Positions 3,586-27,887 of a DNA stretch of 29,094 nucleotides are shown here, in pieces (position 1 is the stretch's first letter; each line of letters opens with the position of its first letter). A program made the position numbers and the translations under genes. The notes under the pieces were generated by a model, which saw only the letters and a program-made list of their open reading frames with translations, ran no database searches and was not told the DNA's origin. The stretch is from a virus (Duplodnaviria; Heunggongvirae; Uroviricota; Caudoviricetes): positions 1 through 29,094 of the IMG/VR virus record IMGVR_UViG_2778261543_000004, one strand, 5' to 3'.

Positions 3586-3641
3586 AACCATATGTGGTTT
3601 AATTATGATCGGAATGCTCTTAACGAAATTACCTTACGGGT
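3586..3641 (-). promoter_or_regulatory. Late-operon upstream element, copy C (ATTACCTTACGGGT plus AACCATATGTGGTT)
   Basis: Third copy of the bipartite motif also found upstream of the tailspike and portal operons; lies between the acetyltransferase terminator and the lysis operon start. Confidence 0.45.
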
Positions 3642-3666
3642 ATTAAAAAGCCCACCTGAGTGGGCT
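3641..3666 (-). terminator. Rho-independent terminator after the acetyltransferase moron
   Basis: Hairpin AGCCCAC-ctga-GTGGGCT followed on the - strand by TTTTTAATA. Confidence 0.7.
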
Positions 3667-3670
3667 TCTA

Positions 3671-4659
3671 TTACTTGGTTAAGCTTGCTGGCAGGTGGCT
3701 TTTAATTATGTTTTTACCGATGAACACTGACCCTTCATCAGTAGGGTGACCGTAATCCATGGACATAAGCGTAAAGCCACTATCTACCCTTGACCTACAC
3801 TTCAGTTCTGTACCTTCACGTGCACACAAGCCATCAAGTATGTCGACAAAATCATATCCTTCATTGTCTTTTGATATCGTCTTCATTTTGTTATTTGTCG
3901 CGACAATCTGTTTATCCAAAAATCTGTTATCAATGTAAATATCATTGGGATTATAGTTTTTCGCAACAATAAGCGGCAGGCTCCCTTTCCACTGAGGAAC
4001 AGGACCAAGGACTATAACTTTTTTAACACCCAGTGCGTGTATTTTTTCAGCAATATCTTGCCAGTCTGTTTCTTCATGCTGGAATCTCTGAGCTAATACC
4101 ACAACATCAGGTTTAACAATATTTATATCTTCAATGGCTTTTTCATTGGATAGATTACATCCAATTGTGGCACTTATAACTCCAGGGAATTTATGGAGAC
4201 TCGGTTTACAACTTGAAGCAGCAAGTTGATAGAATGGAACGCCATCTTTTAGAAGTGATCTTATCCCTAAAGAAAGTGCTCCCGCGTGAGAGTCTCCCCA
4301 TAAGAAGACACCTCCCCTTTTATCAGTATCGACACATGATTTATCGATATGATCCAGTTTTTCACTGCTGTTACATTTATCCCACATCCCATTATTATCA
4401 AACCGATATCCATCGTAATGCACCACAGTTTCATTACCGGTAGTTTTTGTGATACTTCGCATATCAGTGTTAGCGCCATTAGAAATATATATACCAACAG
4501 CTAAAGCTAATGATGCAAAGTACAGAAACTCCTTTTTAACGCCGCCTCTACTTTTGAAAACACTTTCTATATATTTAAATGACAACATACCCATCGCCAC
4601 TGACGCAACAATTCCAATGAGCGTTGTTAATATAGAAACACCACCATATGTATTATATA
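3671..4659 (-). CDS. O-antigen acetyltransferase, C-terminal SGNH-hydrolase fragment (frameshifted)
   Basis: Last AT3 helix (GGVSILTTLIGIVASVAMGMLSF) followed by an SGNH/GDSL-like domain (GVFLWGDSHAGALS...); upstream of ~4660 this frame is not meaningful, so it is the downstream half of a split gene. Confidence 0.7.
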
Positions 4660-5528
4660 TATAGATAGATCGGCCAGTGCCACAAATAAATTGAATATGA
4701 ATACAACCCAATCTTTTGCGCAAAAGATGAATCTAAGATAATGTTATCAGAACACGACCACAATATGATCATCGTGCCGATGATAGGCAGCAGCGCATTG
4801 TAGCTAGGCCAGTACGATTCCTCGCTAAAAATAAAGCAGGATACTAATATGGTAGCAATCCCGATATATGGGAAAGGTTTTCGTTTAAATATTGATGTCG
4901 GGAAAAGATAAACCACGCCGCCAGCAATCATCTCCCATGCCCTTGTTGGAAGCAAGAAATATGATGAGCTAACTAAAATCCTAGATGCATAAATGCTAAG
5001 TGCTAAACTTAATAGGCCTGCAATCAGAATTAATATCCTAGATACCTTTAAACTGAAAGCCTTTCTGATAATATAAATGGCTAAAGGATATATAATATAG
5101 AATTGCCATTCTACAGATAGAGACCAAGTATGAAGTAACCACTTCTCTTCTGCACCAGGAGCAAAGTAGCTTGACTCCTTCCAATAGACGATATTTGAAA
5201 CAAATAGAAGGCTTGACGCAGCGTGCTTCGCCAATGTCTTAAATTCAGGAGTGTACATGTTGTACCATCCGTATACCATTACGCAAATTAGCATAACGGC
5301 AAGCGCAGGCACTATCCTTCTGGCTCGTGCTTTATAAAAGCCCCACAGAGAAAATTTATTTCCTTCTAATCCGCCAAATATTATTGACGTCATCAAAAAA
5401 CCAGAAATTACAAAGAATACATCTACGCCAACAAATCCACTCGGGACCCATCCTCTGTTGAAGTGGAACAGGACTACAGCAAGAACTGCTATAGCCCTGA
5501 CTCCATTGATATCCTTCCTGAAGTCCAT
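4653..5528 (-). CDS. O-antigen acetyltransferase, N-terminal acyltransferase-3 membrane fragment (frameshifted)
   Basis: Typical AT3 N-terminus (RAIAVLAVVLFHF...GFVGVDVFFVISGFLMT) and multiple transmembrane helices, ending ...YLWHWPIYLYI at a stop inside a (TA)5 tract. Confidence 0.75.
   Translation of the reverse strand: MDFRKDINGVRAIAVLAVVLFHFNRGWVPSGFVGVDVFFVISGFLMTSIIFGGLEGNKFSLWGFYKARARRIVPALAVMLICVMVYGWYNMYTPEFKTLAKHAASSLLFVSNIVYWKESSYFAPGAEEKWLLHTWSLSVEWQFYIIYPLAIYIIRKAFSLKVSRILILIAGLLSLALSIYASRILVSSSYFLLPTRAWEMIAGGVVYLFPTSIFKRKPFPYIGIATILVSCFIFSEESYWPSYNALLPIIGTMIILWSCSDNIILDSSFAQKIGLYSYSIYLWHWPIYLYI
4655..4663. repeat. (TA)n dinucleotide tract at the acetyltransferase frameshift
   Basis: ATATATATA at the junction of the two acetyltransferase reading frames; adding one TA unit fuses them into a single ~619-aa ORF. 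Confidence 0.8.
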
Positions 5529-5625
5529 GCCTCAATGCCTCACACAGTTACGATACGAGGCATGTTATACATTTAGACTGTGGATTTCATCATTTAAGCA
5601 AAAGTTAGTTTGAATCGTTCAAGTA

Positions 5626-7920: not shown

Positions 7921-7972
7921 GTTAAATCTCCAGATAGTCGCAGCACCCGTTGCGCCGCATATCCGGTTATTC

Positions 7973-8037
7973 TATTACCTGAAAAACCATATATGGATAG
8001 ACAACCCATAAATACGAACAGATATTACCTTTCAGGT
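7973..8037 (-). promoter_or_regulatory. Late-operon upstream element, copy A (TATTACCT, CCATATATGG, TATTACCTTTCAGGT)
   Basis: 15-bp exact repeat TATTACCTTTCAGGT (8023-8037) shared with 24633-24647, plus perfect palindrome CCATATATGG (7987-7996); upstream of the tailspike start. Confidence 0.5.
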
Positions 8038-8076
8038 GATTCGCAAAACGTGCTGGATAGCAAATAAATTATTTGA

Positions 8077-8096
8077 TACTGTATATTTATACAGTT
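8077..8096 (+). promoter_or_regulatory. LexA operator (SOS box)
   Basis: TACTGTATATTTATACAGTT matches the LexA consensus TACTGTATATATATACAGTA (CTGT-N8-ACAG core); TTGATA -35-like hexamer overlaps its 5' edge; 20 bp upstream of the 8116 ATG. Confidence 0.8.
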
Positions 8097-8115
8097 ATTG
8101 CATGGAGAAGATAAG

Positions 8116-8373
8116 ATGCAGCAGTATCACTATCCACTGGAAGACGGATTTACCGAAAGGATTCACACGCCGGGAGGCGTCAGATCACTGGTGGAGGGAT
8201 CGCACTTGATGAAATTACTCCGGGAGCTCGATAAGGATGGATTTAATGTCGATGGCCCACTTGCCGAACTGACTGCACTGATTAACTACGTCACCAGCTC
8301 ACAGATGTCTATGCGGGATCTGCAAACACATCTCGACTATTGTGCCGAACAATTACGAAAACAAACCACATAA
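8116..8373 (+). CDS. SOS-regulated small hypothetical protein (moron in late region)
   Basis: 85-aa ORF from ATG 8116 with GGAG RBS 8 nt upstream, directly behind the LexA box; opposite strand to the flanking structural genes. No recognisable family; not DinI-like by eye. Confidence 0.65.
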   Translation: MQQYHYPLEDGFTERIHTPGGVRSLVEGSHLMKLLRELDKDGFNVDGPLAELTALINYVTSSQMSMRDLQTHLDYCAEQLRKQTT

Positions 8374-8379
8374 AGAAAA

Positions 8380-8408
8380 GGCCGCTAGAGCGGCCTGTGA
8401 CATGTCAC
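8380..8408. terminator. Hairpin plus GTGACATGTCAC palindrome between convergent genes
   Basis: GGCCGC-taga-GCGGCC hairpin (8380-8395) adjacent to GTGACATGTCAC (8397-8408); T-tract lies on the - strand (TTTTCTTTAT), so it best terminates the - strand small ORF. Confidence 0.65.
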
Positions 8409-8415
8409 GCTCACG

Positions 8416-8556
8416 TTATGACAAGCCTATGTACCCTGCTACACCAGATAATATCAAAATAACTGCAACAGCAAATTCACCATCACCAATGATACATTTA
8501 CGGTTCATAACGCCAAGTGCAATAAGCGCAAACACAACAAGAATAAAAGCAATCAT
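8416..8556 (-). CDS. Small two-helix membrane peptide (46 aa)
   Basis: ATG at 8556 with AAGGA RBS; translation MIAFILVVFALIALGVMNRKCIIGDGEFAVAVILILSGVAGYIGLS verified by hand; followed by palindrome and terminator. Below the 60-aa ORF-track cutoff. Confidence 0.45.
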   Translation of the reverse strand: MIAFILVVFALIALGVMNRKCIIGDGEFAVAVILILSGVAGYIGLS

Positions 8557-8628
8557 TTCTCATCCTTATTGCGGAGTGACATCCTGCGGTCGCCACCAGT
8601 ATGTCTGGTTAAACTCTTTCTTCGAACG

Positions 8629-11040
8629 TTACTCCATTTTACGCAAATAACCTGGTGAAAAATACTCCTGCATCTGGTTAAATATCATATGATCGAGAGC
8701 CGCCTTCAAGTACCAGAGATTCGCACCTGGCATCAGCCCCTTCCCCAGCTTAACCATATCACCACCAGTCTGCTCATTCTTCCCTTCCACAGCATTTAAC
8801 GGTATGCCCTGAGCTATCTTAACGATATCATCAACAAGGCCTGCCACCGGACCAAGCATCGACGCCAGCGCGCCGCTTCCGTACCTAGTGTGATCTGACA
8901 ATAAAAAGTCACCGTAAAGGCCAAGACCACCACCTTTCAGTAGAGCACCAAGCCAAAATTTAGCAGCATCTTCTCCTGTCATCTCGCGAGGATTACGACC
9001 AGACGCAAGGTCGTTAAGTTGCTGCGACAAAGCGCCAAGAATGGTCGTACTGGCAATAAACGTCGCAATATATGCCGCACGCCCACCAGCAGACGGCATA
9101 CCCATAGCGCGTGACCAGTGACGCATAACCACCGAGATAGGGAACGATTTAAACAGGAAAACACTTCTCGTTAATTCACCCTTCCATGTTCCACGCTGAA
9201 TACCAGAACCGGTTATCAATTGCTCACGCGCGCCAGGTGTAATAACAGCCATATCAACTTCTTCAGTTACGGCACCGAGCAGTTTACGCATTGCCTCAAA
9301 TTTCACACGTTCAGGCTCACCAAGATGTTTAACTGCTGAATCAGGGATACGCATAATGCTTTCCGGTGTCAGCATCGTATTATTGCCGTTCCCCCAGTCC
9401 TCCTGTTGTGCCAGCTTCCATACGCTCCAGTCTGTTTCAGTAATCCCTTTGCTTTTCAGGATACGAAAATCAGAGTCATCGAGGCTACGAAGGTCTGGTG
9501 TCCGTGACACTACTTCTCCCAGGCTTCCCATCATTGTTACGCCATAGGCGCGCTTGTGCGCATCTGACCATGCTGTAAGTCCACTGGCACGCATTACCGC
9601 CGTTGCCGCCCAACGAGACACAGACGGCCCCATATTATCCATCGCCCAGCGGTTAACGCTGCCAAGTAGAGATTCCATCGCCAGACCAGCGCGGCGCGCC
9701 CGCGCAAGCTCAGTACGATTCGTTGGGTCCATAGCTTCAAGCTGGTTGCGAAATAACTGGTTCATTGGAAGGTTGGTAACCTTCGCAGACAGATACATGG
9801 TTCCAAGATCAGAGAACGATGACAGCAACGCGGATCCGAGTCTGCTGGCAACCAGCCAGTTGCGGATATTGTCAGACCATCGCGCGATGTGCGGATTCGC
9901 TACAGGCTGTGTCTTTCCGGAAATAAAGTTGTACAGATTCTCTGTGTTGTTCGCCAGCCGCTCGACTTTACCGGTTTTACTCGGGTTAGCTGTTGCCGTT
10001 TCTGCCTTAACCTGATCAAGAAGGGAGCGGAAAACATGATCGGGGTTTGGACCATATGTTTCCACCAGAGCAATATCTTTACTGATACCTTCCAGGTGAC
10101 CGACCATGATTTCCCATAGAGAGCGATCGCCATAAAGTTGTTGATATTGGAGATAGGAATCTGCATCTTTGAAATGTATCTGTCGTGATGCATTACCACG
10201 GTTAGCACGTGCGCCGGAAATTCGCATTCCTGTATCAGTAAGCTTATTCAGCCCACCAGTAGCGATCGTGTTATAAGCCTCTCCAAGAAATGCAGACAAC
10301 TCGGCATCGTTCATCAGTTGTCCATCGGCTCGGGTATAATATTTGCGATCCAGCTTACCTATAACATCGCTAACCCACTTATCCTTTGATACCGCCCCAA
10401 CCTTTTCCATAGAATGATGTTGAGGGATCCCCCAGTTTTCGAGATAGCCAATGTCCCCACCAGCATCATTAAACCGGCGGCGCAGCAGCTCTGTAACTTC
10501 TCTCCACGCCTTAGCACCTTTTCTTGCTTTAGCATTGCCAGTATTTTGCCCCCGCATTTCATATACCAGGTCACGTACGCCCGCTTCATCTTCAAACAGA
10601 CCAAAAAAGCGAGGATCAACTGCTTCGAATGCCTCCTGCAATTGACTCAATGCATAATCACGGGTAGCTTTTGTTCTGGATTCAACAGAGAGGAAATTAG
10701 ATTTACCGTCTGCATTAAAAGCTATAGTACGGTTAAGAGCGCCAAGTTTCCCATCAGCCCCTTGATAGCTATTGATAAATTTATCCAATCTCTGACGCGC
10801 GGCTATAGTGAGAGCCACACGACGTTTCTTTAATGTCGCTTCTCGCTGTAATTCTTCAGATGCCAATTGTGCTGCTCGATATAGCCGCTCTGATTCGGAA
10901 AGTTGTCGCCACGACATCGGGTCATCACGAGCAATGGAGCGCATATTTCGATAAATGCGGTCTTCAATGTTCTGTATTTCTCGCGCCGTTAACGTGCGCT
11001 GCGCCGCCTGCTGGACCGCTTGTATACATTCCTGTCTCAT
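8629..11040 (-). CDS. Internal virion / ejection protein (T7 gp16-like position)
   Basis: 803 aa; GAGAGG RBS; last large gene of the internal-protein block before the tailspike. Confidence 0.6.
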   Translation of the reverse strand: MRQECIQAVQQAAQRTLTAREIQNIEDRIYRNMRSIARDDPMSWRQLSESERLYRAAQLASEELQREATLKKRRVALTIAARQRLDKFINSYQGADGKLGALNRTIAFNADGKSNFLSVESRTKATRDYALSQLQEAFEAVDPRFFGLFEDEAGVRDLVYEMRGQNTGNAKARKGAKAWREVTELLRRRFNDAGGDIGYLENWGIPQHHSMEKVGAVSKDKWVSDVIGKLDRKYYTRADGQLMNDAELSAFLGEAYNTIATGGLNKLTDTGMRISGARANRGNASRQIHFKDADSYLQYQQLYGDRSLWEIMVGHLEGISKDIALVETYGPNPDHVFRSLLDQVKAETATANPSKTGKVERLANNTENLYNFISGKTQPVANPHIARWSDNIRNWLVASRLGSALLSSFSDLGTMYLSAKVTNLPMNQLFRNQLEAMDPTNRTELARARRAGLAMESLLGSVNRWAMDNMGPSVSRWAATAVMRASGLTAWSDAHKRAYGVTMMGSLGEVVSRTPDLRSLDDSDFRILKSKGITETDWSVWKLAQQEDWGNGNNTMLTPESIMRIPDSAVKHLGEPERVKFEAMRKLLGAVTEEVDMAVITPGAREQLITGSGIQRGTWKGELTRSVFLFKSFPISVVMRHWSRAMGMPSAGGRAAYIATFIASTTILGALSQQLNDLASGRNPREMTGEDAAKFWLGALLKGGGLGLYGDFLLSDHTRYGSGALASMLGPVAGLVDDIVKIAQGIPLNAVEGKNEQTGGDMVKLGKGLMPGANLWYLKAALDHMIFNQMQEYFSPGYLRKME

Positions 11041-11045
11041 TTAAT

Positions 11046-12848
11046 TTAACCTCTCAAGAAACACGCCACAGCGACATCAAACAGGCTGGAATCCTGTATT
11101 GCCTGCTCACTTTCCCTGTTCGCTTCGTCCAGTACTTCACGCGCACTGCGCGATTGTGGATTACCATCATCATCCAGCACGGTGATTATCATGTCAGGTG
11201 ATTCAAGCAGCGAGTCTTCAGCTATGCGCAGATCAATATCTCCTGCCTGATCTGACATCATTTTTTGTTCTGCCTGTTGCAATATTTTATCAGGCTCAAA
11301 AGGAGCTACTTCGTCTGGCGTCCTGACCTCTGCTGTTTTATAGAATGAAACAGCCTGAGCATTAAGTTCACTTTCTGCCTGCTGTCTCCGAGCCAGTTCT
11401 GCTCGAGCTTCAAAAAACTGACCGCCAGGCTCGTGCGGTGCCAACGCGTTACGGGAAAATTCCAGGCGTTCTTGTGCCTGCCGGATTCGTTGATCAATAT
11501 CGCGAAGTCTGGCCTGTTTATCTGATCGAGCACGAGACAAAGCTTTACCGCTACCGGTTGGCTCTTCTGCAAGAATTTGTGCGCGCTGTTCAGTGAGATT
11601 TTCAATAATTCGTTGGCTATTAGCGATTTCAGACTGGTAAACCTGTCTATCGCCACGCGACAAAAGCTGCGCGGCCTGTTCTTCAAGCAACCGATTTTCT
11701 ATAGCGCGCGCCGTTACTCCATTATCTACAGATGACAGAGCCTCATTAACTGCCTGAGACAGCAGACTCTTGCGCCCAGGAATTTCACTGAAAGATGCAG
11801 ACTCAACAATGCTGGCAACGTCTACAGGTCTCCCCTGGCTAACATCAGACATGGCTTTTCGCAGAGCCTGAATGTGCGAATTACGCGAAAGCACGTTGAT
11901 CGGAACGCCGGGAGCAATATCAATTTCAGCATGATGAGCGGCATTCGCCGCCAGTGCAGCATCAATATCAACTGGTGAAAAATTTGGTGCGCTTGTAGAC
12001 TCGCCGCGAGAGTTAATAAATCTGCCGACACCACCAAACGCCACCCCAAGAACAGCATCAATAGCAATTGCCTGTCGATCCAACACATCATACTGGTTAG
12101 CCATTTCGCTATAGCCACCATCACGAAGTGTTTTTGCAGTAAGCCCACGCTGTGCCATACCGAACGCAATATTTGTACCTGCGGCATAGGCAATATCTGG
12201 CGTTGCACGTACTGCTGTTGCTGCGGCGCGTCGCACTGAACTCTCACCCGTCCGCGCAAGCTGAGCCGCCACACCTTCCGCCAGCGCACCACCAGCACGT
12301 AACCCGAGGCTCATAGGGATCAGCGTTCCGGCACCAGCAGTAATGCCCTGCACTAATCCCGCTTCCTGCGCCGTCCTGAAATCAACACCCTGTGCTGTCA
12401 GCCGTTCAAACTCAGAAAAACCCTGTAGCGAAGTTACCGCCGCTGCACCTCCGACAGGACCACCGAGCGTTGTACCGACAACAGCCTGCCCGCCCATATC
12501 GAACAACCCATAAAGAACCTGCCCAGCGGTTCCAGTTGTCGCGGCATCAGGCGTCAGCCGCTTAACCTGCTGCTCTGCTAGTTTTCTCTGCTCGGCAATG
12601 TATGAAACTGAAGTATCATTGAGCGAGGTGTTTTCGTTAACAAACTGAGCAATCGGGGATACGATTTTATCCATCCCTGCCCATAGCAACTGATCTGGCT
12701 TTGCCACCAGCCCGGAGTACAAACCAGACAATGCCGCTCCTACAGCATTGTCGAAAAAACCAACATCGCTGTTAAAGCCCGCTGGATTTGATGCTGCTTC
12801 GTCAAGTTGCTGATTCTGGTTTACTGGATTAAGGCCGAAGTAACTCAT
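11046..12848 (-). CDS. Internal virion protein (Gly/Ala-rich)
   Basis: 600 aa, Gly/Ala-rich N-terminal half and coiled-coil C-terminal half; start overlaps the upstream stop (ATGA). Confidence 0.6.
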   Translation of the reverse strand: MSYFGLNPVNQNQQLDEAASNPAGFNSDVGFFDNAVGAALSGLYSGLVAKPDQLLWAGMDKIVSPIAQFVNENTSLNDTSVSYIAEQRKLAEQQVKRLTPDAATTGTAGQVLYGLFDMGGQAVVGTTLGGPVGGAAAVTSLQGFSEFERLTAQGVDFRTAQEAGLVQGITAGAGTLIPMSLGLRAGGALAEGVAAQLARTGESSVRRAAATAVRATPDIAYAAGTNIAFGMAQRGLTAKTLRDGGYSEMANQYDVLDRQAIAIDAVLGVAFGGVGRFINSRGESTSAPNFSPVDIDAALAANAAHHAEIDIAPGVPINVLSRNSHIQALRKAMSDVSQGRPVDVASIVESASFSEIPGRKSLLSQAVNEALSSVDNGVTARAIENRLLEEQAAQLLSRGDRQVYQSEIANSQRIIENLTEQRAQILAEEPTGSGKALSRARSDKQARLRDIDQRIRQAQERLEFSRNALAPHEPGGQFFEARAELARRQQAESELNAQAVSFYKTAEVRTPDEVAPFEPDKILQQAEQKMMSDQAGDIDLRIAEDSLLESPDMIITVLDDDGNPQSRSAREVLDEANRESEQAIQDSSLFDVAVACFLRG

Positions 12849-20162: not shown

Positions 20163-20600
20163 TTAACCAGTTACTTTTGAGCGGATCGGGTACGGTGTAT
20201 TGGCATCAACATCCAGACTAATACCCGCAGTGAATTTGCCGGCCGTTAGTGGGCCAGTTGCGACGGAGTAGTTAACACGCAGATATCGCTGAACACCGGC
20301 AGGCACCTTTGCAGAAACAACTCGTTTACCTGCTGTCAGGGCGGTCTTTGCCAGTGCACCACTATCATAAATAGTGGTCCATGAGCTGTTATTCTCACTC
20401 GTCTGCAACTGGATGTTTACAGTTGCCTCACCACTTGCCGTGGCGGCTTCGTTAACCAGCACCCAAAACTCAAGCGGGTAACCCACGCCGATATCACGAC
20501 GTTTTCCGTCAATTGGACCGAGATCGATTACGTCAGTAGAAGCCGCGGTATTCGTAACCGCCTGAGCTTCGGAGAACATCAACAGTTTGTCGGTGATCAT
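20163..20600 (-). CDS. Putative capsid decoration / minor capsid protein
   Basis: 145 aa, immediately downstream of the major capsid gene; beta-rich composition. Confidence 0.5.
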   Translation of the reverse strand: MITDKLLMFSEAQAVTNTAASTDVIDLGPIDGKRRDIGVGYPLEFWVLVNEAATASGEATVNIQLQTSENNSSWTTIYDSGALAKTALTAGKRVVSAKVPAGVQRYLRVNYSVATGPLTAGKFTAGISLDVDANTPYPIRSKVTG

Positions 20601-20651
20601 CTTCTTTCTCCATTAGTGGGTCTGTTACGACCCACAGGTTAATAACAGGCG

Positions 20652-21638
20652 TTACACCACGCGGGCTTCTGTTTCCAGAAGCGCATCAGTTTCACGGATT
20701 GGTACACCACGGAATGAAGTCCACCACTCGCCTTCAGTCTCTTTTACGCTGATAGCCAGAGATGTTTTCTCCAGAGACTGCAGATCAAGAGCCTGGCCTA
20801 CAGTGCGGTTCATGTAGAACACCGGGCGGCCCATGCCACGGTTTGGAATGCGATGTAGTGCTTTAACCATCAACTTCGCAATATTTGCGGCAGAGGAAGG
20901 TTCTGAAAGATTGCTGACATCGATGTTTGCAATGCGAACAACATAACGCCAGTCACGCAGAGCAAGTCCGTTGTCCCATTTGTAATGGGTGCGATAGCCT
21001 TCGTACTTGCCGCCATTAGCATCTTCCAGTGTCACCTGGCCTTTATCTTCCATCTGGATGCCAGCCTTCTGCCCTTTCGGGAAGATGCCATGCACGGTGT
21101 TTTCGCCCCACACCACTAACCAGATTGAGGTGTTATCTGTACCCGTGCCACCAGCATCAATGATGTTCTGAGCATTACCCGCAGACAGGCTGGAATAGCG
21201 GGAGGACAGTCCCATAAACTGCTGAGGGTTAACGCTGGAATCACCATAAAACAGCGTCTGCGCCATCTGCTGATTCATCGCTTCAATAAATGCGCGGTCT
21301 TCAGACAGGCGGAATTCAGCGGTATTGCCGTTCAGATCAGCCAGTGATTTATCGACTTCAGCATAGGTTTCCAGCATGCCAACGGAATCGGTTACCTGCA
21401 CTGTGGTTGATTTGCTTGGCTGTACGCCATAGTTCAGCAAACGCCAGGTAGCTGAAGGTAAACCAGAACGAATGGTGGTTCGGTGTCCGGTAGGAAGGTT
21501 CCCTTCGACAAAAGGCATATCCTGAAGGATCGGGTTAGTTTGACCGAGAAGCTCGATAATCTTATCGACTTTCCCGTTTGGATCGACGCGCTTACCCCAG
21601 TCAGCCAGCGTTAGCGCAGTTAAGCCTTTAACAGCCAT
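20652..21638 (-). CDS. Major capsid protein
   Basis: About 328 aa from ATG 21638 (GAGG RBS 8 nt upstream; alternative ATG at 21644); downstream of scaffold and portal; size as T7/epsilon15-type major capsid. Confidence 0.75.
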   Translation of the reverse strand: MAVKGLTALTLADWGKRVDPNGKVDKIIELLGQTNPILQDMPFVEGNLPTGHRTTIRSGLPSATWRLLNYGVQPSKSTTVQVTDSVGMLETYAEVDKSLADLNGNTAEFRLSEDRAFIEAMNQQMAQTLFYGDSSVNPQQFMGLSSRYSSLSAGNAQNIIDAGGTGTDNTSIWLVVWGENTVHGIFPKGQKAGIQMEDKGQVTLEDANGGKYEGYRTHYKWDNGLALRDWRYVVRIANIDVSNLSEPSSAANIAKLMVKALHRIPNRGMGRPVFYMNRTVGQALDLQSLEKTSLAISVKETEGEWWTSFRGVPIRETDALLETEARVV

Positions 21639-21652
21639 TGTCATTTCCTCTC

Positions 21653-22354
21653 TTATTTGCCATAGAGCACTTCGGCCGCACTACGCTGGCCTTCATTACC
21701 ACCGGTGACCATGCCATCTTCAGACATCGCCTTTCCGATTTTCACGAACGTTTTGACCAGATCAGGGTGATTACCCAGCCCGGTGGTGTTCAGATATTCT
21801 TTGAGTTCAGGTGTCCCGAACTGGTCAAGCGCACGCTGTGCGGCGCTAAGGTTAGAAATCAACTTGTCGCCACCGATTTCTTTGTCAGCTTTTACATCCG
21901 CAGCCCACTGCTCGGTTGTTTTCTGCCAGGCTTCTGCCTGGCGCTGCTGAACACCTGCCAGAATCTTCGGATAAGCATCAACCAGCTTTTGCGCTTGCTC
22001 GTTGGTCAGGTTAAGTTCTCGCGCCACCGGCTCGAATTCCTTCAACGCTTCTGTATCCAGCTCTACGCCTTCGGCAGCCTGAAACTCGTACTTCTCAGGC
22101 GCACCCTCTGGTTTATCGCCGTCCTTTTTTTCATCCTGCTTATCGTTTTCAGGCTTTTTGTCATCAGCAGGTTTATCGCCATCAGCAACAGGTTGTGGCT
22201 TATCACCTTCCTGTTGTGATGGATCACCAACTGGAGCAGGGTTATCACCTGCAGGCGCTGACGGTTCTGACGCAGCCGGAGCTGCTCCACCATCGACTGG
22301 TTGCTCATTGCAAAGACGGCTATACAGCAAACGCTCAAACAAATTCATGATCAC
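21653..22354 (-). CDS. Scaffolding protein
   Basis: 233 aa, acidic, Pro/Ala/Asp/Lys-rich low-complexity N-terminal half and helical C-terminus; between portal and capsid. Confidence 0.6.
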   Translation of the reverse strand: MIMNLFERLLYSRLCNEQPVDGGAAPAASEPSAPAGDNPAPVGDPSQQEGDKPQPVADGDKPADDKKPENDKQDEKKDGDKPEGAPEKYEFQAAEGVELDTEALKEFEPVARELNLTNEQAQKLVDAYPKILAGVQQRQAEAWQKTTEQWAADVKADKEIGGDKLISNLSAAQRALDQFGTPELKEYLNTTGLGNHPDLVKTFVKIGKAMSEDGMVTGGNEGQRSAAEVLYGK

Positions 22355-22647
22355 TCCTGTTCACTGGCCTCTTTGGCCATCTTCAAATACTGTTCAGGGC
22401 AATGCGCCATAACGCGCTGAAACAGTTCCAGCGCCAGATTGCGTTGCCCCTCATTAAATGCCATTGCCATAGCGTCCATCGGTGAGATAGCGGAAAACAC
22501 ACGGCCTTTCTCCAGCACCGACCAGACAACGCGACGCCCCTGTTCACTGCTCATGACAAAGCGAATGTCATCAATTTCACGCTGTGCCATGTCACGTTGC
22601 TTACGGGCGTTTTCTTCTTTCAGTTGATCGTCTTCGTAATCTGTCAT
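22351..22647 (-). CDS. Hypothetical small protein
   Basis: 98 aa, start overlaps the portal stop and stop overlaps the scaffold start (ATGA at both ends). Confidence 0.55.
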   Translation of the reverse strand: MTDYEDDQLKEENARKQRDMAQREIDDIRFVMSSEQGRRVVWSVLEKGRVFSAISPMDAMAMAFNEGQRNLALELFQRVMAHCPEQYLKMAKEASEQE

Positions 22648-24323
22648 TGTGATTGCCCACCCTGACCACTAACTGCATTCGCCATAGCTGACAAAACACT
22701 CGGATCCGAAGTTTTAGCTTCGCTTAGCGTCTTGGCACCCTGTGCCGCCGCCATCCCCATCGCCATCATTTGTTGCTGCTGTTGCTGCTGTGCCCGTTGC
22801 TGGCGAGCATGCTCAACCTGTTCCTGAGGAACAATGACGGTTGGAGACACTCCGGACATATCAGCGAATGCATCGATCGCCTGATCAACGTTGAGTTTGT
22901 CGAGAGCTTCTGGTTTCGCTTGCGCAAGTTGACCAATGAAGTTAACCGTGGACGCCAGACTGGACAGGCCGATAGACTTCTGCGCCTGAGCCATGACGGA
23001 AATGTATTCGACCTTCAGGGGCATGCCTTCCATCGCGTCAGGCGGTGGCGGCAGCATGTTTTTACGCACCATCATCGAGAAAGCGCGGTCAATGAGAGGA
23101 TTAAGACATTCGTCGTTCAGACGTTCCAGAACCGGCCCCAACATCAGAAGTTTTTCTTCTTTCATTTCGATCACCGCTTCAACAGGCATCGAGCGGGTAT
23201 TGATGTTCTGCAACATCATGAACAGATCGACAAAGTAGGCGCTGTTAATGATTTGACGAGTGTCCTGAATGTCTGCCACCAAATCTGCTGTACTGGGGTT
23301 AACCAGATAAGCAGGCCTGAAACCATCCTGACCAGTAATCTGATCGATATACGTGATGTCGCCAGGAAGAAGGGAGGCACGCTGATTCTTGAGGGAAGTC
23401 GGAGCAACCATCGGCGGATTGGTGGCTTTATCAATCAACTGCGACTTGCGCTTCTGGAGAAGCTGCAATGCCTTAACAGGTCCAAGCGCCAGCATACCCG
23501 GGCATGATGATCCATAAACATCTTCGCCGTTAACTTCCCAGCGCGGAGCCATAATTGGAAACTCATCGAATCCGGACTCACGCAACAACTTGTCGTTATC
23601 GCCACCAACCTCGTAATAAACCGATTTGAATGGCTTGTTCTTGCTATCCAGCTTCGATGTATCGCGGTCAATGTTCGGGTAAACCGAATGCATCACGTCA
23701 ATCCACTTCTCGTAGGTGCCGCTTTCCCACATGCTTTTTACGGATTCGCTGACGTTATTTAGCCCGAACTCCTGAACAAGCTGACGAACAGTCATAGAGA
23801 ACTTGCGAAAACAGGTGTCCACACTGCCACGAGGTGAGTTAGCCAGGTAGTAACTGCCTATCGGGAATGGCATTGTGCGAATGATGTCCTCGTCATCCTC
23901 CAGCACCGCCATTGCACCAGTGCTGTATGTGCCGAGGCTTCCGTATAACTGCGGAAGAGACTGGTAGAGATTCGACTTATTGAACATATCGTTCATGCGG
24001 TTCTGCACCGCCTCGAGCCACAACTTAACAGGACCATAATCCATCATTTCAGGATCTGGCGTAGCCAGGCGAAACCACGGACGCGCAGGGCTTGTGATGC
24101 CTGACATCATGCCGCTGGCGAGAGTGCGCGCCGCCATAGTCCCGGTCGAATCAATAATGCGTGTATTGCGTCGATCGTTACGGTTGACCTCAGAAGTCAG
24201 AAAGCGGGAACCACGCGGGTTGATGTAATCACTCAACTCGCGCCAGTGCGGCTCGAACGACTGACGCTCGCTTTCAAGTTGTGCGAACTGTTTGTTCAAT
24301 CGCTCTTTAGTTGTTTCCGCCAT
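22644..24323 (-). CDS. Portal (head-to-tail connector) protein
   Basis: 559 aa with poly-Gln/Ala-rich C-terminal tail; GGAG RBS; between terminase and scaffold/capsid, as T7 gp8 / epsilon15 portal. Confidence 0.75.
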   Translation of the reverse strand: MAETTKERLNKQFAQLESERQSFEPHWRELSDYINPRGSRFLTSEVNRNDRRNTRIIDSTGTMAARTLASGMMSGITSPARPWFRLATPDPEMMDYGPVKLWLEAVQNRMNDMFNKSNLYQSLPQLYGSLGTYSTGAMAVLEDDEDIIRTMPFPIGSYYLANSPRGSVDTCFRKFSMTVRQLVQEFGLNNVSESVKSMWESGTYEKWIDVMHSVYPNIDRDTSKLDSKNKPFKSVYYEVGGDNDKLLRESGFDEFPIMAPRWEVNGEDVYGSSCPGMLALGPVKALQLLQKRKSQLIDKATNPPMVAPTSLKNQRASLLPGDITYIDQITGQDGFRPAYLVNPSTADLVADIQDTRQIINSAYFVDLFMMLQNINTRSMPVEAVIEMKEEKLLMLGPVLERLNDECLNPLIDRAFSMMVRKNMLPPPPDAMEGMPLKVEYISVMAQAQKSIGLSSLASTVNFIGQLAQAKPEALDKLNVDQAIDAFADMSGVSPTVIVPQEQVEHARQQRAQQQQQQQMMAMGMAAAQGAKTLSEAKTSDPSVLSAMANAVSGQGGQSQ

Positions 24324-24337
24324 TTCAATGACTCCGG

Positions 24338-24544
24338 TTACTGACCAAGCAGCGTTTTACCGCTGGTATTAGCGGTTGATGTGTCGCCCTGAGAACCGGT
24401 AAGCAGCGTAGAACTACGACCAGCAGCAGCGCGACGGCGACGTGTTTCTTCGTCGCGGGCATCAACAACGGCGGCATCCTGCTCCTGTGGTGCTGCCTGA
24501 ACTTCTGGTGTTGCAGGCACTGATGGTGAGCTACCCATGCACAT
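24338..24544 (-). CDS. Small hypothetical protein upstream of portal
   Basis: 68-aa ORF with good RBS (GGAGTcattgatATG), Ala/Gln/Thr-rich; preferred over the overlapping 79-aa frame. Confidence 0.5.
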   Translation of the reverse strand: MCMGSSPSVPATPEVQAAPQEQDAAVVDARDEETRRRRAAAGRSSTLLTGSQGDTSTANTSGKTLLGQ

Positions 24545-24568
24545 ATCAATGACTCCGTACGCAATTAA

Positions 24569-24647
24569 ATTATTACCAATTTAACCACATATGATTTATT
24601 TATCGTAGAAGGTTGACATTTAACGCGTGAATTATTACCTTTCAGGT
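24569..24647 (-). promoter_or_regulatory. Late-operon upstream element, copy B (TTATTACCA, AACCACATATGA, TATTACCTTTCAGGT)
   Basis: Same bipartite arrangement as copy A, including the exact 15-mer at 24633-24647; on the - strand the proximal copy reads GGTAATAAT (-10-like) about 25 bp before the small ORF and portal. Confidence 0.5.
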
Positions 24648-24970
24648 AACTAAAGAGCTCATTCTGGTTACTAACCTGACTGGCTTGTCGTTAAATTAAA
24701 CAGGTGGAGTGAGCTTTTATTTTGAGCAGTACGGCGTATGGCACATGCGCCGATAGCGGTCTGGATACGTTTAAGGGGCACCATCCCTTGCTCGGGCAAA
24801 CGAACCAGGTAGCCGGAATGTGCAAGTCGAGCGGTTTTATTCCGCGCACGGGGATTCACCATCCCGGCGATTCGGTGTGACGCCTCGGAAGAGACGAGGG
24901 TACAACGATGAGAGCATTTATGGAGCCGCGACAAAGTGTGGCGCCTTAACAGGCTAAGTGCTCTCAGCGT

Positions 24971-25047
24971 TGTGGCATTAGCTCAGTCGGACAGAGCAAC
25001 CGCCTTCTAAGCGGTTGGTCGCAGGTTCGAATCCTGCATGCCACGCC
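24971..25047 (+). tRNA. tRNA-Arg (anticodon UCU, reads AGA)
   Basis: Folded by hand into a cloverleaf: acceptor GTGGCAT/ATGCCAC, D-arm GCTC-AGTCGGACA-GAGC, anticodon arm ACCGC-CTTCTAA-GCGGT, T-arm GCAGG-TTCGAAT-CCTGC, discriminator G and encoded CCA. Confidence 0.9.
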
Positions 25048-25091
25048 AGAATCACGCCTAAGGACCGTGATGCCAGAAGTTCCAGGGGCTT

Positions 25092-25133
25092 GGCGGTGAT
25101 GGTTTCCCTTGAAGGACTATCACCGCCCTTTTT
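25092..25133 (+). terminator. Hairpin plus T-run after the tRNA
   Basis: GGCGGTGAT...ATCACCGCC stem followed by CTTTTT. Confidence 0.55.
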
Positions 25134-25211
25134 ACAGCAGGACGCCATTGCGATGACTTCATGCTGTAAACCCGTACAGCCACGGAAGGCATAACTCATT
25201 GCTTCCAGTTC

Positions 25212-25235
25212 GCCCGGTTCGCCGGGCATTTTTTT
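25212..25235 (+). terminator. GC-rich hairpin plus T7 run immediately upstream of the 25247 RBS
   Basis: GCCCGG-ttcg-CCGGGC followed by ATTTTTTT, ending 1 nt before the AAGGTGAG RBS. Confidence 0.55.
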
Positions 25236-25246
25236 AAGGTGAGATT

Positions 25247-25618
25247 ATGAACGACAAGCAAATCGAAAAAGAAATCGTTGAGAAAGGCAAAACGGCACCG
25301 CGCGTTACGCCAGACCATATCGAAGGCATTATTGCTCAGGAGGCATATTTCACAGCAGAAGATGGTGCCTTTGGCAAAGCCATAAAAGCGAAACATACTG
25401 GCGGAGAGGTAAACTACCAGCCGCACGAATCACTTTCTCTGCTGACGTTCTGCGTCCTGGTGCTGCGCAACGGCTTCACCGTCACCGGAGAGAGCGCCTG
25501 TGCAAGCCCGGAAAACTTTGATGCAGAAATTGGTCGGAAGATTGCCCGGCAGAATGCTGTAAACAAAATCTGGATGCTCGAAGGTTACTTGCTGAAGCAG
25601 AAGCTAAGCGAGCAATAA
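25247..25618 (+). CDS. Small phage protein, possibly of the N4 gp49 / Sf6 gp66 family (moron)
   Basis: 123 aa, RBS AAGGTGAG; opposite strand to the packaging operon; stop followed by GTGACATGTCAC and an intrinsic terminator. Family assignment from memory of a motif (TGESACASPENFDAEIGR), unverified. Confidence 0.65.
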   Translation: MNDKQIEKEIVEKGKTAPRVTPDHIEGIIAQEAYFTAEDGAFGKAIKAKHTGGEVNYQPHESLSLLTFCVLVLRNGFTVTGESACASPENFDAEIGRKIARQNAVNKIWMLEGYLLKQKLSEQ

Positions 25619-25638
25619 CACCGTGACATGTCACAAAC

Positions 25639-25665
25639 AGCCAGCCGATGAGCTGGCTTTGTTTT
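25639..25665 (+). terminator. Rho-independent terminator after the 25247 gene
   Basis: AGCCAGC-cgatga-GCTGGCT followed by TTGTTTT; 4 nt downstream of the 12-bp palindrome at 25623-25634. Confidence 0.75.
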
Positions 25666-25708
25666 ATCCTCATCAGAGGATATCAACGACATTATCCCCA
25701 CCAGCGGA

Positions 25709-27184
25709 TTAAGCATAGGGATCGTAATCTGTGATGGCCTTGCCTTGCTGGTTCTGCTGCCCGGGAATTCGCAGACGCTTCGACACAGGGAACGCAAACG
25801 TCAGCAGTAGCGCATCGCCTTTACCAGGCGAACGCCCAAGCCGCTCCTTGATATCTTCCTTCGGTTCGATAACGATTTTACCGTCCACTCGAACTTTGTA
25901 CTCTGCCGCCGACAGATCGTCCGCTGTTTCCTGGTCATCCAGCATCCCGCCCAGCCTCAGCCATGTCTTGCATGAGTTGAACATCTCCCCACGCTTGTTG
26001 AGCATCTGCTGGTCAGTAGACGCGCCACCGAACGGAACAAGTTGCCATGTGCGCCCCCAACCGTCACCGATTGACTTCAGACCGGTACCGTAACCAAAGT
26101 CGATGAACACTGCGTCAGCCTGATACAGGTCTTCAAAGTCAGCGATACGCTTCGCCATAATCAGATCGTCGGTAGTCTTGTTGCCAGTCCACAGCACCTT
26201 ACTGTGTAGCCCCTGCCGCAGGTATATCACCGCGTCATCAACGCCTGAATATGCCGGGTCAACACCGATTATCACCGGAGCATGCGCCACCTGCGCAGCG
26301 GTTACCACCCGTTTCATTGCCTCATCAGTAAGACCGGTAGGGATAAACTGCAATTCAGATGCATCAGGGAATATGCCGCGCACACGGATTTTAACGAAGT
26401 CGCTGTCTTCCCCGTAGTCATCAACCCATTTCTGCAACTGCTGTTTGTTAGTGCCTTCCACCGTCCGGCTGTCAATCTGTGCAGTTTTCCAGCGGTGTTT
26501 ATATTTGCGGAAACATTCGCGGAAACGCCCGGTGTTACGTGTCGGATTTCCGAACGCCACCCAGATAATCTCAGTGTCTTCGTCCGTAAGCGCACCCTCA
26601 GCAACTTCCCACACCAGATCCGCAATGTTCGACGCTTCATCGAATACCACGATGATGCGTTTGCGCTCGTTGTGTAGTCCGGCGAATGCCTCAGTGTTGT
26701 GCTCAGACCAGGGGATTGCGTCAGCTCGCCACCGCTTGTCGTGTCCAGGATCATTGCTGTACATCGCGGTAGCGGTACAGGTAAACCAGTCTTTCGTGAT
26801 AGCAAGGTTCGACCACTTGATAATTTCCGGCCAGGTCTTCGTTCGTAGCTGGTTGTCGGTGTTGGCGGTCACCACGACCTTACAATCCTCGCAAGTGGAC
26901 ATGCCCCAGTTGATCAACATTGAGATGAATGCTGATTTACCAATACCGTGACCAGAAGCGCGTGCCAGCATAAGCGGCTGATAGCGCGTCTCCGGATTCT
27001 GCAGGTGATCACGTATCTCTCGGAACGCATCAGCCTGCCACTGACGTGGGCCGGTGGCATGTGCCAGTTCAGTCCCCTCTTCCCCCCACGGGAACGCATA
27101 GAGGGCATAGCCAAGCGGATCGTGAGTGAACCCTGCAATATCCTCGATCAACTGCTCTTCAGGAGATAACGCTGTATCTGTCAC
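25709..27184 (-). CDS. Terminase large subunit
   Basis: 491 aa with N-terminal ATPase features (Walker A-like SGHGIGKS, Walker B-like IIVVFDEAS) and C-terminal nuclease-like region (IIGVDPAYSG...); start overlaps the terS stop. Confidence 0.85.
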   Translation of the reverse strand: MTDTALSPEEQLIEDIAGFTHDPLGYALYAFPWGEEGTELAHATGPRQWQADAFREIRDHLQNPETRYQPLMLARASGHGIGKSAFISMLINWGMSTCEDCKVVVTANTDNQLRTKTWPEIIKWSNLAITKDWFTCTATAMYSNDPGHDKRWRADAIPWSEHNTEAFAGLHNERKRIIVVFDEASNIADLVWEVAEGALTDEDTEIIWVAFGNPTRNTGRFRECFRKYKHRWKTAQIDSRTVEGTNKQQLQKWVDDYGEDSDFVKIRVRGIFPDASELQFIPTGLTDEAMKRVVTAAQVAHAPVIIGVDPAYSGVDDAVIYLRQGLHSKVLWTGNKTTDDLIMAKRIADFEDLYQADAVFIDFGYGTGLKSIGDGWGRTWQLVPFGGASTDQQMLNKRGEMFNSCKTWLRLGGMLDDQETADDLSAAEYKVRVDGKIVIEPKEDIKERLGRSPGKGDALLLTFAFPVSKRLRIPGQQNQQGKAITDYDPYA

Positions 27185-27777
27185 TGATTACCATCCTGAC
27201 GTTCTTTGAGTCGCTTCCTGGCTGCCGCTATGCGATCAGCAATTGTCACATTCACATTAACATCCAGGCGTTCTTTGAATGCGTTGACGTCGACGTGCTT
27301 ACCAATCAGTTCGAGGTTCTTCACCTTGTCAGGCCATTTAATTTTTTTGAGGATTGTCTCTATCGAATCCTCGTTCATGTTCATGATGGTCGATGACAGA
27401 TCAAAGCCACTAAGCGTAGTGCGCCAGATTTTCGGCCACTCACTGATTGGTTTAAGGCTCCCATCGTCGTTGAGGATATCGATCACGTCCATCTGGTCGA
27501 TCTCCACCAGGCGCATGAGAACGTAATCAGCACTGACGCGCATTCGTTTGTTGCGCTCCTCCATCAACTCGGCAATCCGTTTTTGAATGCGTTCATCGCG
27601 CATCATGACACTGGCTTTAACTGCCGCTGTATTTGGGGAGAATCCTGCGTTAATCGCTGCCTGAGTCTGGTTTTCAGGCGTTTTGATGTATGACTGGCAA
27701 TAAGCCTCCTGCATTGCTGTGAGCGGCTTAAATTGCGTTGATTTGCGTTTATAGGTTTTAGGTTCAGCAGGCATCAT
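27181..27777 (-). CDS. Terminase small subunit
   Basis: About 198 aa from ATG 27777/27774 (GGTGG RBS); the first 26 codons of the listed ORF are probably not translated; directly upstream of and overlapping terL. Confidence 0.65.
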   Translation of the reverse strand: MMPAEPKTYKRKSTQFKPLTAMQEAYCQSYIKTPENQTQAAINAGFSPNTAAVKASVMMRDERIQKRIAELMEERNKRMRVSADYVLMRLVEIDQMDVIDILNDDGSLKPISEWPKIWRTTLSGFDLSSTIMNMNEDSIETILKKIKWPDKVKNLELIGKHVDVNAFKERLDVNVNVTIADRIAAARKRLKERQDGNQ

Positions 27778-27786
27778 AACCACCAT

Positions 27787-27813
27787 GGTAATAGTTACCG
27801 TTGTGGTAATAGT
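27787..27813. repeat. Tandem direct repeats GGTAATAGT (x2) just upstream of terS
   Basis: GGTAATAGTTACC at 27787 and GGTAATAGTACCA at 27805, flanked by CCATGG and CCATGC; lie between the terminator and the terS start. Confidence 0.5.
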
Positions 27814-27820
27814 ACCATGC

Positions 27821-27846
27821 AAAATAAAGCCGCCATAGTTGGCGGC
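27821..27846 (-). terminator. Rho-independent terminator upstream of the packaging operon
   Basis: GCCGCCA-acta-TGGCGGC followed on the - strand by TTTATTTTG; about 45 bp before the terS start. Confidence 0.7.
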
Positions 27847-27887
27847 AGTATTCAAAACCCGTCAAATTCATCATGCATAATCTACTC

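Follow-up and report, generated by a model that had tools for sequence, protein, structure and literature searches.

A conserved structured RNA of lambdoid, P1-like and epsilon15-like phages, and the tRNA slot behind it in a plus-strand cassette of an epsilon15-like phage

What does a lone tRNA gene do on the strand opposite to its neighbours, between the terminase and portal genes of a phage, with two transcription terminators behind it and the second of these touching the ribosome-binding site of the next gene? This arrangement is found at positions 24971-25246 of the IMG/VR virus record IMGVR_UViG_2778261543_000004, of which we analysed a stretch of 29,094 nucleotides (nt), hereafter the window. 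The initial annotation had described a phage-borne tRNA-Arg(UCU) with two tandem terminators behind it, and had suggested attenuator-like control of the following gene for a 123-residue protein. Here, we report that the tRNA and the terminators are, on their own, known and ordinary, and that the new feature of the locus is element E, a widespread and undescribed RNA structure with a slot for a tRNA or a tRNA mimic.

From 24330 to 25710, the window is 95.9% identical to Escherichia phage phiV10 and to the O157 typing phages 9 and 10, and it is a phiV10/epsilon15-like temperate podophage of the genus Uetakevirus. The flanking genes are all on the minus strand, leaving between them a plus-strand island of about 1.1 kb. 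The most unusual part of the region is the stretch of about 400 nt upstream of the tRNA. From the gp3 homologue to the tRNA, no gene is annotated in any relative, and the stretch is nonetheless conserved among phages of Escherichia, Salmonella, Klebsiella and Enterobacter. The earlier description was incomplete on this point, as it overlooked both this structured non-coding region and a third hairpin (hp2) behind the first terminator.

E is a real structured RNA of the plus strand, a conclusion that covariation among aligned relatives strongly supports. A covariance model (R1), built from an alignment of 41 representatives (A1), matches the window at 24732-24903 with 136.5 bits. Across A1, 95% of the cells are paired, against 27-49% when the partners are slid; 13 of the 25 pairs are changed on both sides, and the score was reached by 0 of 500 shuffles. 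A held-out alignment, A3, comprises 62 distinct hits from 70 loci outside the training of R1; there, 97% of the cells are paired and 12 of 21 pairs show double changes, though the fitting of A3 to R1 biases these values somewhat towards the structure. In the pseudoknot P5, the CACC of the P4 loop and its partner GGUG are switched to AACC and GGUU in three lineages. Many of the pairs are G-U, and the structure must thus belong to the plus-strand transcript. The whole leader from 24648 to 25240 has a folding z-score of −4.5.

No Rfam 15 family matched 24565-24971 at E-values up to 10, nor did any match six related loci searched likewise, and the scan of the whole window at gathering scores returned the tRNA as sole match. 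In Escherichia coli genomes, hundreds of which carry E, the Prokaryotic Genome Annotation Pipeline (PGAP) places nothing under it, and we found no description of it in the literature on put and HK639, on the mEp phages, on phiV10 and epsilon15 with tRNA-Arg, on the P1 ban operon or on structured RNAs of prophages. The Pas small RNAs were considered and set aside, being located elsewhere, in the late region. Two loci of our set, L142 (8821-8900) and L158 (5510-5589), hold the 3′ half of E only (P3-P6), directly behind a strong promoter-like site (TTGACA...TAATAT); these copies could be truncated remnants or hint at a minimal functional core.

E is far from restricted to relatives of phiV10. Window positions 24731-24975 are 83% identical to sequences of lambdoid phages (cdtI, mEp460, Shiga toxin (Stx) 2c-converting and some Stx2a-converting phages), and the first two thirds of E are about 80% identical to P1, P7, D6 and SJ46. 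At least 120 IMG/VR contigs, comprising 107 distinct cores, contain an exact 19-mer of E (GGTAGCCGGAATGTGCAAG), and by means of an independent second anchor pattern we recovered additional subfamilies whose 19-mer varies. A query made of 24600-25250 matched 1074 of 5426 complete E. coli genomes, an upper bound that includes some tRNA-only matches. With one genome per species, E was found in about 18 species, nearly all of them Enterobacteriaceae or Erwiniaceae. Full-scoring copies also occur outside the Enterobacterales, in metagenome-assembled genomes of a Stellaceae (L193) and of a Bacillota (L207); the latter is the best match to E of all (161 bits) and lies on a 1.7-kb contig, and contamination during binning is likely in both. 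The CPS-53 prophage of E. coli K-12 has the early-left genes yfdP, yfdQ and yfdR and lacks E, so K-12 transcriptome data are uninformative for it. R1 gives no match in Salmonella phage ST64B. By eye, the pL leader of this phage (L138 5240-5950, minus strand) looks like a divergent relative of E (GUAGCCAGUGCAAGCG) that shares the end of P7, the slot bracket, a hairpin like terminator 1 and the hairpin after this terminator; as R1 missed it, the E family would be broader than the model.

In every setting, E lies in sense orientation: in the pL leaders of SfV-, mEp460- and Stx2c-type lambdoids, in the ban operon of P1 and in the cassette of the window. All three are repressor-controlled early units. 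In mEp460, cI is followed by a terminator, by two TTGC-N7-GCAA palindromes together with a promoter-like site, and then by E, another terminator and the early-left genes; the same palindrome, of which there are four occurrences in all against 0.26 expected, is also found in the cI-cro intergenic region. Stx2a_WGPS2 and 1720a-02 share this arrangement. In P7 and P1-like phages, E belongs to the C1-controlled ban operon, behind the annotated C1 operator Op(ban), 17 nt after a tRNA-Ile/Met(CAU) and about 100 nt before ban. In the window, E begins about 85 nt past the predicted start site. The nearest upstream gene encodes a co-oriented CI-like repressor in 58 of 113 loci. Downstream, the genes fall into 31 unrelated clusters, and E therefore goes with the transcription unit and not with a particular protein. 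In the right operon of mEp460 and of an Stx2c phage, inside the Rha/antirepressor region, we also noted matches to the C4 antisense RNA (83.6 bits) and to isrK (67 bits), at L005 706-894 and L004 776-964 (both minus strand); this region looks like the immI of P1.

The start site of the window cassette is predicted from a candidate promoter with 9 of 12 consensus positions, the best match within 24560-24760. The palindrome over its −10 box has a homologue in epsilon15 (ATTACCTTTTAGGTAAT) that GenBank annotates, as a prediction, as a repressor-binding site. The pattern TTACC-N5-GGTAA occurs five times in the window against 0.42 expected, including one copy at 27795 ahead of the small terminase gene. 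The predicted operator points to early-lytic rather than lysogenic expression of the cassette. Besides the copy on the promoter, the pattern is found at 27795-27809, 27777-27791, 8025-8039 and 3629-3643. The two copies within 27777-27809 either precede the small terminase open reading frame (ORF) or fall inside its beginning; the true start of this ORF is ambiguous between a TTG at 27855 and a site at about 27774, the one of typing phage 9. Between promoter and E, the leader hairpin P0 corresponds to one annotated as an 'RNaseIII' site in epsilon15, and it is missing in some relatives (L147 and L178), where the operator abuts the P1 hairpin. P0 resembles P7 (GAGCUCA/UGAGCU and GAGAGCA/UGCUCUC, respectively), and in relatives the segment 5′ of P1 reads like the 3′ strand of P7 (GGAGUGCGCUUCCAGGUGUG), perhaps a trace of tandem duplication.

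We next consider the tRNA. ARAGORN calls exactly one tRNA in the window, and its score with the Rfam tRNA model (RF00005) is 73.3 bits for a gathering score of 29, placing it in the family. Compared with argU of K-12, 63 of 77 positions are identical; of the 14 that differ, ten form five compensated stem pairs, and every difference in a stem is compensated. The two agree in A20 of the D loop, in the anticodon loop CUUCUAA and the T arm, and in G73 and the CCA end. The arginine identity elements of tRNA are A20, C35 and U36, and the alignment with argU shows them in the window tRNA together with an intact acceptor stem and a 3′ CCA. We thus agree with the initial annotation that the tRNA is canonical and yet distinct from the host copy, and we propose that it is a genuine, decoding-competent tRNA-Arg(UCU). 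In other Uetakevirus members of the phiV10-like and SPN1S-like types (typing phages 9 and 10, phiv142-3, SPN9TCW and SPC32H), the same tRNA-Arg is annotated in the same place, while the phiV10 record has an opposite-strand coding sequence (CDS) instead. None of the Uetakevirus records annotates E or groups the terminators with the tRNA into a unit.

Does this tRNA serve codon supply, as had been suggested? In 28 likely genes (8634 codons), AGA and AGG are used 6.6 and 4.1 times per 1000 codons and jointly make up 19% of the arginine codons. In E. coli K-12, these codons stand at about 2 and 1 per 1000, so that the phage level is about three times higher. They cluster in minus-strand genes at 3671-12848, and the genes for head, portal and terminase contain hardly any: 17 of the 26 arginine codons in 5626-7920 are AGA or AGG, and almost none in 20163-27774. 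Being both elevated and concentrated, these codons make the suggestion plausible, and the tRNA most likely supplements the decoding of AGA, and of some AGG, for the AGA/AGG-rich tail and lipopolysaccharide-related genes. The block at 3671-12848 may have a different origin.

The position of the tRNA relates it closely to E. There is no spacer between the two, and the base of P7 overlaps nucleotides 1-2 of the tRNA. Because P7 ends there, cleavage by RNase P would set the 3′ end of E at 24971. The same E-then-tRNA-Arg order without spacer is seen in 28 of 128 E loci, where tRNA-Arg(UCU) follows P7; in 18 others (the P1 type), a tRNA(CAU) precedes E, and the rest have no called tRNA. In loci without a tRNA, a domain of 80-200 nt takes the place behind P7; GUUGUGG(U)/(A)CCACAAC closes it, and it has a hairpin at the position of the T arm. 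The acceptor stem of the tRNA loci (GUGGCAU/AUGCCAC) has the same GUGG/CCAC ends. Two types of slot occupant even score as tRNA with Rfam (43.9 and 40 bits); they keep normal acceptor, D and T arms, 64-68 nt replace the anticodon arm, and ARAGORN makes no call on them. Since this slot holds tRNA-type RNAs elsewhere, the window tRNA is one of several interchangeable occupants. The small trailer hairpin behind the tRNA is kept in epsilon15-like relatives with or without a tRNA.

Slot RNAs that look tRNA-derived are found at L098 1077-1203 (minus strand), L152 1800-1925 (plus strand), L174 about 1741-1851 and L005 3229-3363, and in other slot loci the tRNA-shaped domains are more degenerate; GUUGUGG/CCACAAC closes every one of them. 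In one slot type, a 47-nt segment resembles positions 237-283 of bacterial 16S rRNA (E-value 1.6e-5), at L073 4600-4646 (plus strand) and L100 1953-1999 (minus strand); it may be a mimic of an rRNA fragment or a captured piece.

The two tandem hairpin terminators that had been described at 25092-25133 and 25212-25235 are borne out by compensatory changes in related phages. Terminators 1 and 2, like terminator 3 at the end of the island, have the form of intrinsic terminators, a G+C-rich hairpin followed by a U-tract. Terminator 1 folds with −22.8 kcal/mol (z −3.05) and terminator 2 with −12.7 kcal/mol, and the T-runs of both are on the plus strand only. Pairing in terminator 1 reaches 90% across 24 distinct related sequences, and 4 of its 14 pairs are changed on both sides; for terminator 2, the pairing is 98.6% and such double changes affect 2 of 6 pairs, with GCCCGG/CCGGGC and GCCCAC/GUGGGC as the two versions. 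By number, the terminator-like sites of the locality (4 against 1.8 ± 1.7 expected) are not significant alone. Weak RyhB-like and other Rfam hits on terminator 2 were dismissed as terminator noise, and phiV10 annotates the hairpin of terminator 3 as a terminator for the terminase strand. Directly behind terminator 1, hp2 engages its U-tract and is 95% paired, without covariation; lambdoid relatives have an analogous, longer hairpin that pairs the U-tract with downstream sequence in the same place.

By a fold-based scan and a motif search, a terminator homologous to terminator 1 (base UGGCGG...CCGCC, tail CUUUUUACA) follows E in 79 of the 128 loci, including lambdoids without a tRNA. As it follows E even there, terminator 1 belongs to the E module, and an ad hoc pairing of the two terminators behind a tRNA moron is not supported. 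Terminator 2 is a hallmark of the epsilon15-like cassette, and a hairpin resembling it (GCCCGGG...CCCGGGC-AU7) follows E in a lambdoid of the Stenotrophomonas-phage type.

Terminator 2 does abut the ribosome-binding site of the next gene: from the end of the T-run at 25235 to the ATG at 25247, there are 11 nt (AAGGTGAGATT), and not 12 as had been given, and they hold the Shine-Dalgarno (SD) sequence. No sigma-70-like promoter with at least 8 of 12 consensus positions was detected between the tRNA and this ATG; read-through as the way in which the 123-residue protein gene is expressed, as first suggested, is therefore a reasonable reading. The encoded protein matches PF13876 with 119.5 bits (gathering score 27, E-value 8.9e-35), and PGAP names it 'Gp49 family protein'. 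In relatives, terminator 2 is followed by the same AAGGTGAGATTATG and then by different genes; likewise, ATTTTTTTAAGGTGAGATTATG is constant in epsilon15-like phages while the gene behind it varies. Since the junction is constant and the gene is swapped, the terminator-2/SD segment is a fixed border of a cargo position. The alternative cargo includes Gp49-like proteins, a Tad2-like protein (Thoeris anti-defence 2, PF11195, E-value 4e-26) and a 201-residue protein; a 282-residue protein of epsilon15-like relatives lies behind a different junction. The Tad2-like cargo suggests that the cassette is an early anti-defence slot. Tad2-like domains (PF11195, E-values 4e-26 and 1e-9) are encoded by the gene after terminator 2 in L083, L094 and L105, and after E in P1-like loci of the L043 type.

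All features of the locus and the neighbouring genes are collected in Table 1.

Table 1. Predicted features of the plus-strand island and genes on either side of it (window coordinates)
Feature	Position	Strand	Evidence or details
Portal	22644-24323	-	PF12236
gp3 homologue, 68 aa	24338-24544	-	
Candidate early promoter, TTGACA-17-TACCTT	24613-24641	+	−35 24613-24618; −10 24636-24641
Operator-like palindrome TTACCTTTCAGGTAA over −10	24635-24649	+	predicted
P0, long 5′ leader hairpin (AGAGCUCA.../...UGAGCUUU)	24653-24718	+	fold −20.8 kcal/mol, z −1.5
Element E, structured RNA of ~240 nt	24732-24971	+	covariance model, covariation
E P1 hairpin	24732-24752	+	
E P2, closes variable insert	24761-24764 with 24805-24808	+	
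E near-invariant junction GGUAGCCGGAAUGUGCAAG	24808-24826	+	
E P3, variable hairpin		+	
E P4	24851-24854 with 24862-24865	+	
E pseudoknot P5, CACC with GGUG	24857-24860 with 24874-24877	+	
E P6, CCUCG-GAAGAGA-CGAGG	24883-24899	+	
E P7, long variable hairpin	24901-24973	+	fold z −5.4
tRNA-Arg(UCU), CCA encoded	24972-25048	+	ARAGORN anticodon tct (position 35); Rfam tRNA model
Small trailer hairpin AUCACG-CCUAAGGAC-CGUGAU	25051-25071	+	fold
Terminator 1 (UGGCGG...CCGCC CUUUUU)	25092-25133	+	14-bp stem 25092-25127, then C-T5 25128-25133
hp2, terminator-1 U-tract (UUUACAGCA) paired with UGCUGUAAA (CUGUAAA)	25131-25170	+	fold z −2.8
Terminator 2 (GCCCGG-UUCG-CCGGGC, A-U7)	25212-25235	+	six G-C pairs 25212-25227; T7 25229-25235
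Shine-Dalgarno AAGGTGAG	25236-25243	+	
Cargo gene, 123 aa	25247-25618	+	Pfam PF13876 Phage_gp49_66
Terminator 3, end of plus-strand island	25639 to ~25658-25668	+	terminator scan, fold
Large terminase	25709-27184	-	
Small terminase	27181-27855	-	PF03592

How could these parts work together? In the explanation that we favour, 24613-25668 would be a single plus-strand early accessory cassette, antisense between the terminase and portal genes. A promoter under the predicted repressor operator would start a long untranslated RNA composed of P0, E, tRNA-Arg(UCU), the trailer hairpin and terminator 1. E and terminator 1 would form a module common to lambdoid pL leaders, and the slot between them would take an occupant with tRNA-type acceptor ends. 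A cut by RNase P at position 1 of the tRNA would release it and leave E with its 3′ end at 24971. The majority of transcripts would end at terminator 1, and the polymerases that pass this terminator and then terminator 2 would be the sole transcribers of the promoterless Gp49-family gene in the cargo position. Of this picture, the features themselves, how far they are conserved and covary, the settings in which they occur and the lack of a recognisable promoter ahead of the cargo gene are observed. We infer the activity of the promoter and operator, the processing by RNase P, the efficiencies of termination and the origin of the read-through, and we assume that read-through is partial and constitutive. 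Such an architectural explanation, which leaves out the molecular role of E, has in our view slightly better than even prospects.

Several observations weigh against it. The −10 box TACCTT is weak, and the function of the operator is known as a GenBank prediction only. Two strong terminators in series would leave very little unaided read-through. The P1-like E lacks P7, the slot and terminator 1 and stands directly before ban; a module of E plus terminator is thus not universal. Moreover, epsilon15 provides a natural deletion: the equivalent of window positions 24767-25097 is gone, and with it most of E, the tRNA and the 5′ half of terminator 1. It retains the promoter/operator, P0, P1, hp2 and terminator 2, and its cargo gene is intact. 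The breakpoint coincides with a short repeat (TTCCCTTGATGCT) that close relatives have both in the P2 insert of E and in the terminator-1 loop. Phage viability thus requires neither E nor the tRNA, and the deletion argues against an essential role of E in the expression of the cargo, with the caveat that half of terminator 1 was removed as well.

The difficulty of passing tandem terminators unaided in front of a promoterless gene is what an antitermination role of E would resolve. E could be a cis-acting processive antiterminator like put of HK022, after which the polymerase resists terminators 1 and 2; only the repressor-controlled promoter would then reach the cargo gene, and the terminators would insulate it from other transcription. 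Indeed, the lambdoid E lies at the position of putL or nutL, between a pL-like promoter just upstream and the early-left genes, no N gene is annotated in mEp460 or its relatives, a strong terminator stands behind E in the 79 loci counted above, and E begins within about 10 nt of the predicted start in L147 and L178, as putL does. The P1 hairpin of E also has ACGGCG...CAUGCGUCG in common with stem I of put, which we take as a lead and not as evidence. Yet R1 finds no match in HK022 or HK639 at E-values up to 10, and the local alignment score of putL with E is reached by 36 of 200 and 171 of 200 shuffles. As neither the model nor the alignment reveals homology, we do not class E as a put, and membership of that family was rejected. 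E is also three times the size of put, each half-genome of mEp460 has a single E without a copy in the right operon, no terminators follow the P1 copy, and epsilon15 keeps its cargo gene without E. We therefore hold an antitermination role to be unlikely. A regulated attenuator behind a tRNA moron, in which a signal (translation, a ligand, or the charging or processing of the tRNA) switches read-through, would account for a leader that is long, structured and terminator-ended. GUUGU has two potential partners, the ACAAC at the P7 base and, where no tRNA is present, the slot-closing CCACAAC, a possible conformational switch; a pairing between AUCAC-GCC (25052-25059) and GGC-G-GUGAU in the 5′ strand of terminator 1 is also conceivable. 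These alternative pairings are invariant and so carry no covariation signal, about 120 nt of tRNA region separate E from terminator 1, and the leader encodes no leader peptide and matches no Rfam riboswitch, leader or T-box. We looked for a conserved antiterminator alternative to either terminator and found none, nor any competing upstream complement for terminator 2; nothing specific speaks for the attenuator-like control proposed at the outset, and we regard regulated attenuation as quite improbable.

The two remaining alternatives take the terminators or the conserved stretch for something else. E and its tRNA or tRNA-shaped partner might be early, stable, trans-acting RNAs, for example countermeasures or decoys against host defences that target tRNA, or against others; the terminators would merely end the RNA gene and the downstream gene would be an independent passenger. 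The fact that tRNAs flank E in two independent ways (3′ in the window, 5′ in P1) fits a release by tRNA enzymes, the slot accommodates diverse tRNA-like RNAs and even a 16S-like fragment, the adjoining cargo includes Tad2-like anti-defence domains, and both the pseudoknot and the near-invariant junctions hint at a partner that binds E. This idea comes from genomic context, leaves the abutment of terminator 2 on the ribosome-binding site unexplained and meets with an epsilon15 that is viable without E, and we consider it improbable. Finally, the conserved region could be a small protein gene or a DNA site (pac, an origin or an operator array) and not an RNA. It adjoins the terminase genes, and GenBank records place hypothetical CDSs across the tRNA with its terminators (PhiV10p04) and across E (mEp460_036/037), with ORFs in UTI89 too; PhiV10p04 corresponds to 24978-25229 on the minus strand of the window, and mEp460_037 and mEp460_036 to L005 2943-3311 and 3353-3496, also on the minus strand. 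A coding reading was rejected, since the insert lengths are not multiples of three, the inserts are placed exactly at helix tips and 12-13 pairs show compensatory double changes; in addition, many G-U pairs would be A-C on the other strand, and E occupies unrelated genomic positions in lambdoids and P1. In view of this RNA evidence, the opposite-strand hypothetical proteins are likely false gene calls, and a non-RNA nature of the region is very improbable indeed.

A broader reading goes beyond the architecture of this one cassette. E may represent a new class of leader RNA, confined to early transcripts under repressor control in temperate lambdoid, P1-like and epsilon15-like phages of Enterobacterales, and acting with an obligatory 3′ slot for a tRNA or tRNA mimic and with a dedicated terminator; we advance this tentatively, as a possibility that falls well short of probable. 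It could take two forms, which together we rate no higher: an RNA-only antitermination or gating of early accessory, often anti-defence, genes, or a stable RNA that RNase P would release and whose tRNA-like partners would counter defences. With either form, the tRNA-Arg(UCU) of the window would be interchangeable cargo and not a free-standing moron, a reading that is just as tentative.

Why does this matter? E stands at the very start of the early lytic programme in three unrelated phage types, including Shiga-toxin-converting phages and P1-like plasmid prophages. If E controls read-through, it would be the second RNA-only solution to early antitermination, after put, in lambdoids without N. 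As a stable RNA, E would instead be the enterobacterial counterpart of the tRNA-associated GOLLD and ROOL, in genetically tractable hosts. In addition, the slot for a tRNA or a tRNA mimic offers a concrete evolutionary route for the acquisition and exchange of tRNA genes by phages.

How does E compare with known systems? GOLLD and ROOL are large structured RNAs of prophages, often located beside tRNA genes and possibly co-transcribed with them (PMC5737381). They resemble E in this context, near tRNA genes of prophages; they differ from it in their hosts (Firmicutes and others), in their size of about 500-800 nt and in the absence of any sequence or model match, while E for its part has a fixed position relative to early promoters and terminators. 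The put sites of HK022 and HK639 and E are both structured sense-strand RNAs placed just past a repressor-controlled early promoter of N-less lambdoids and followed by terminators, and E does lie where a put is expected, in the nascent early transcript upstream of terminators. While put is about 70 nt long with two stems, E has about 170-240 nt, a pseudoknot and variable inserts, and, unlike put, it is present as a single copy per genome, has a tRNA or tRNA-like slot and is also found in podophages and in P1. The precursor of the C4 RNA of P1 and P7 and the MALAT1-mascRNA transcript form their ends in an RNase P-dependent manner through tRNA-like structures. As at E, a tRNA or tRNA-shaped domain is located directly 3′ of a structured RNA; in contrast to E, for which we infer processing, the upstream RNA is of a different family. 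Finally, moron cassettes have in common with the cassette of the window an opposite-strand island between late genes, a promoter of its own, terminators and exchangeable cargo. The window cassette differs from them by about 600 nt of conserved structured non-coding RNA with two terminators before the cargo, and by a predicted operator on its promoter.

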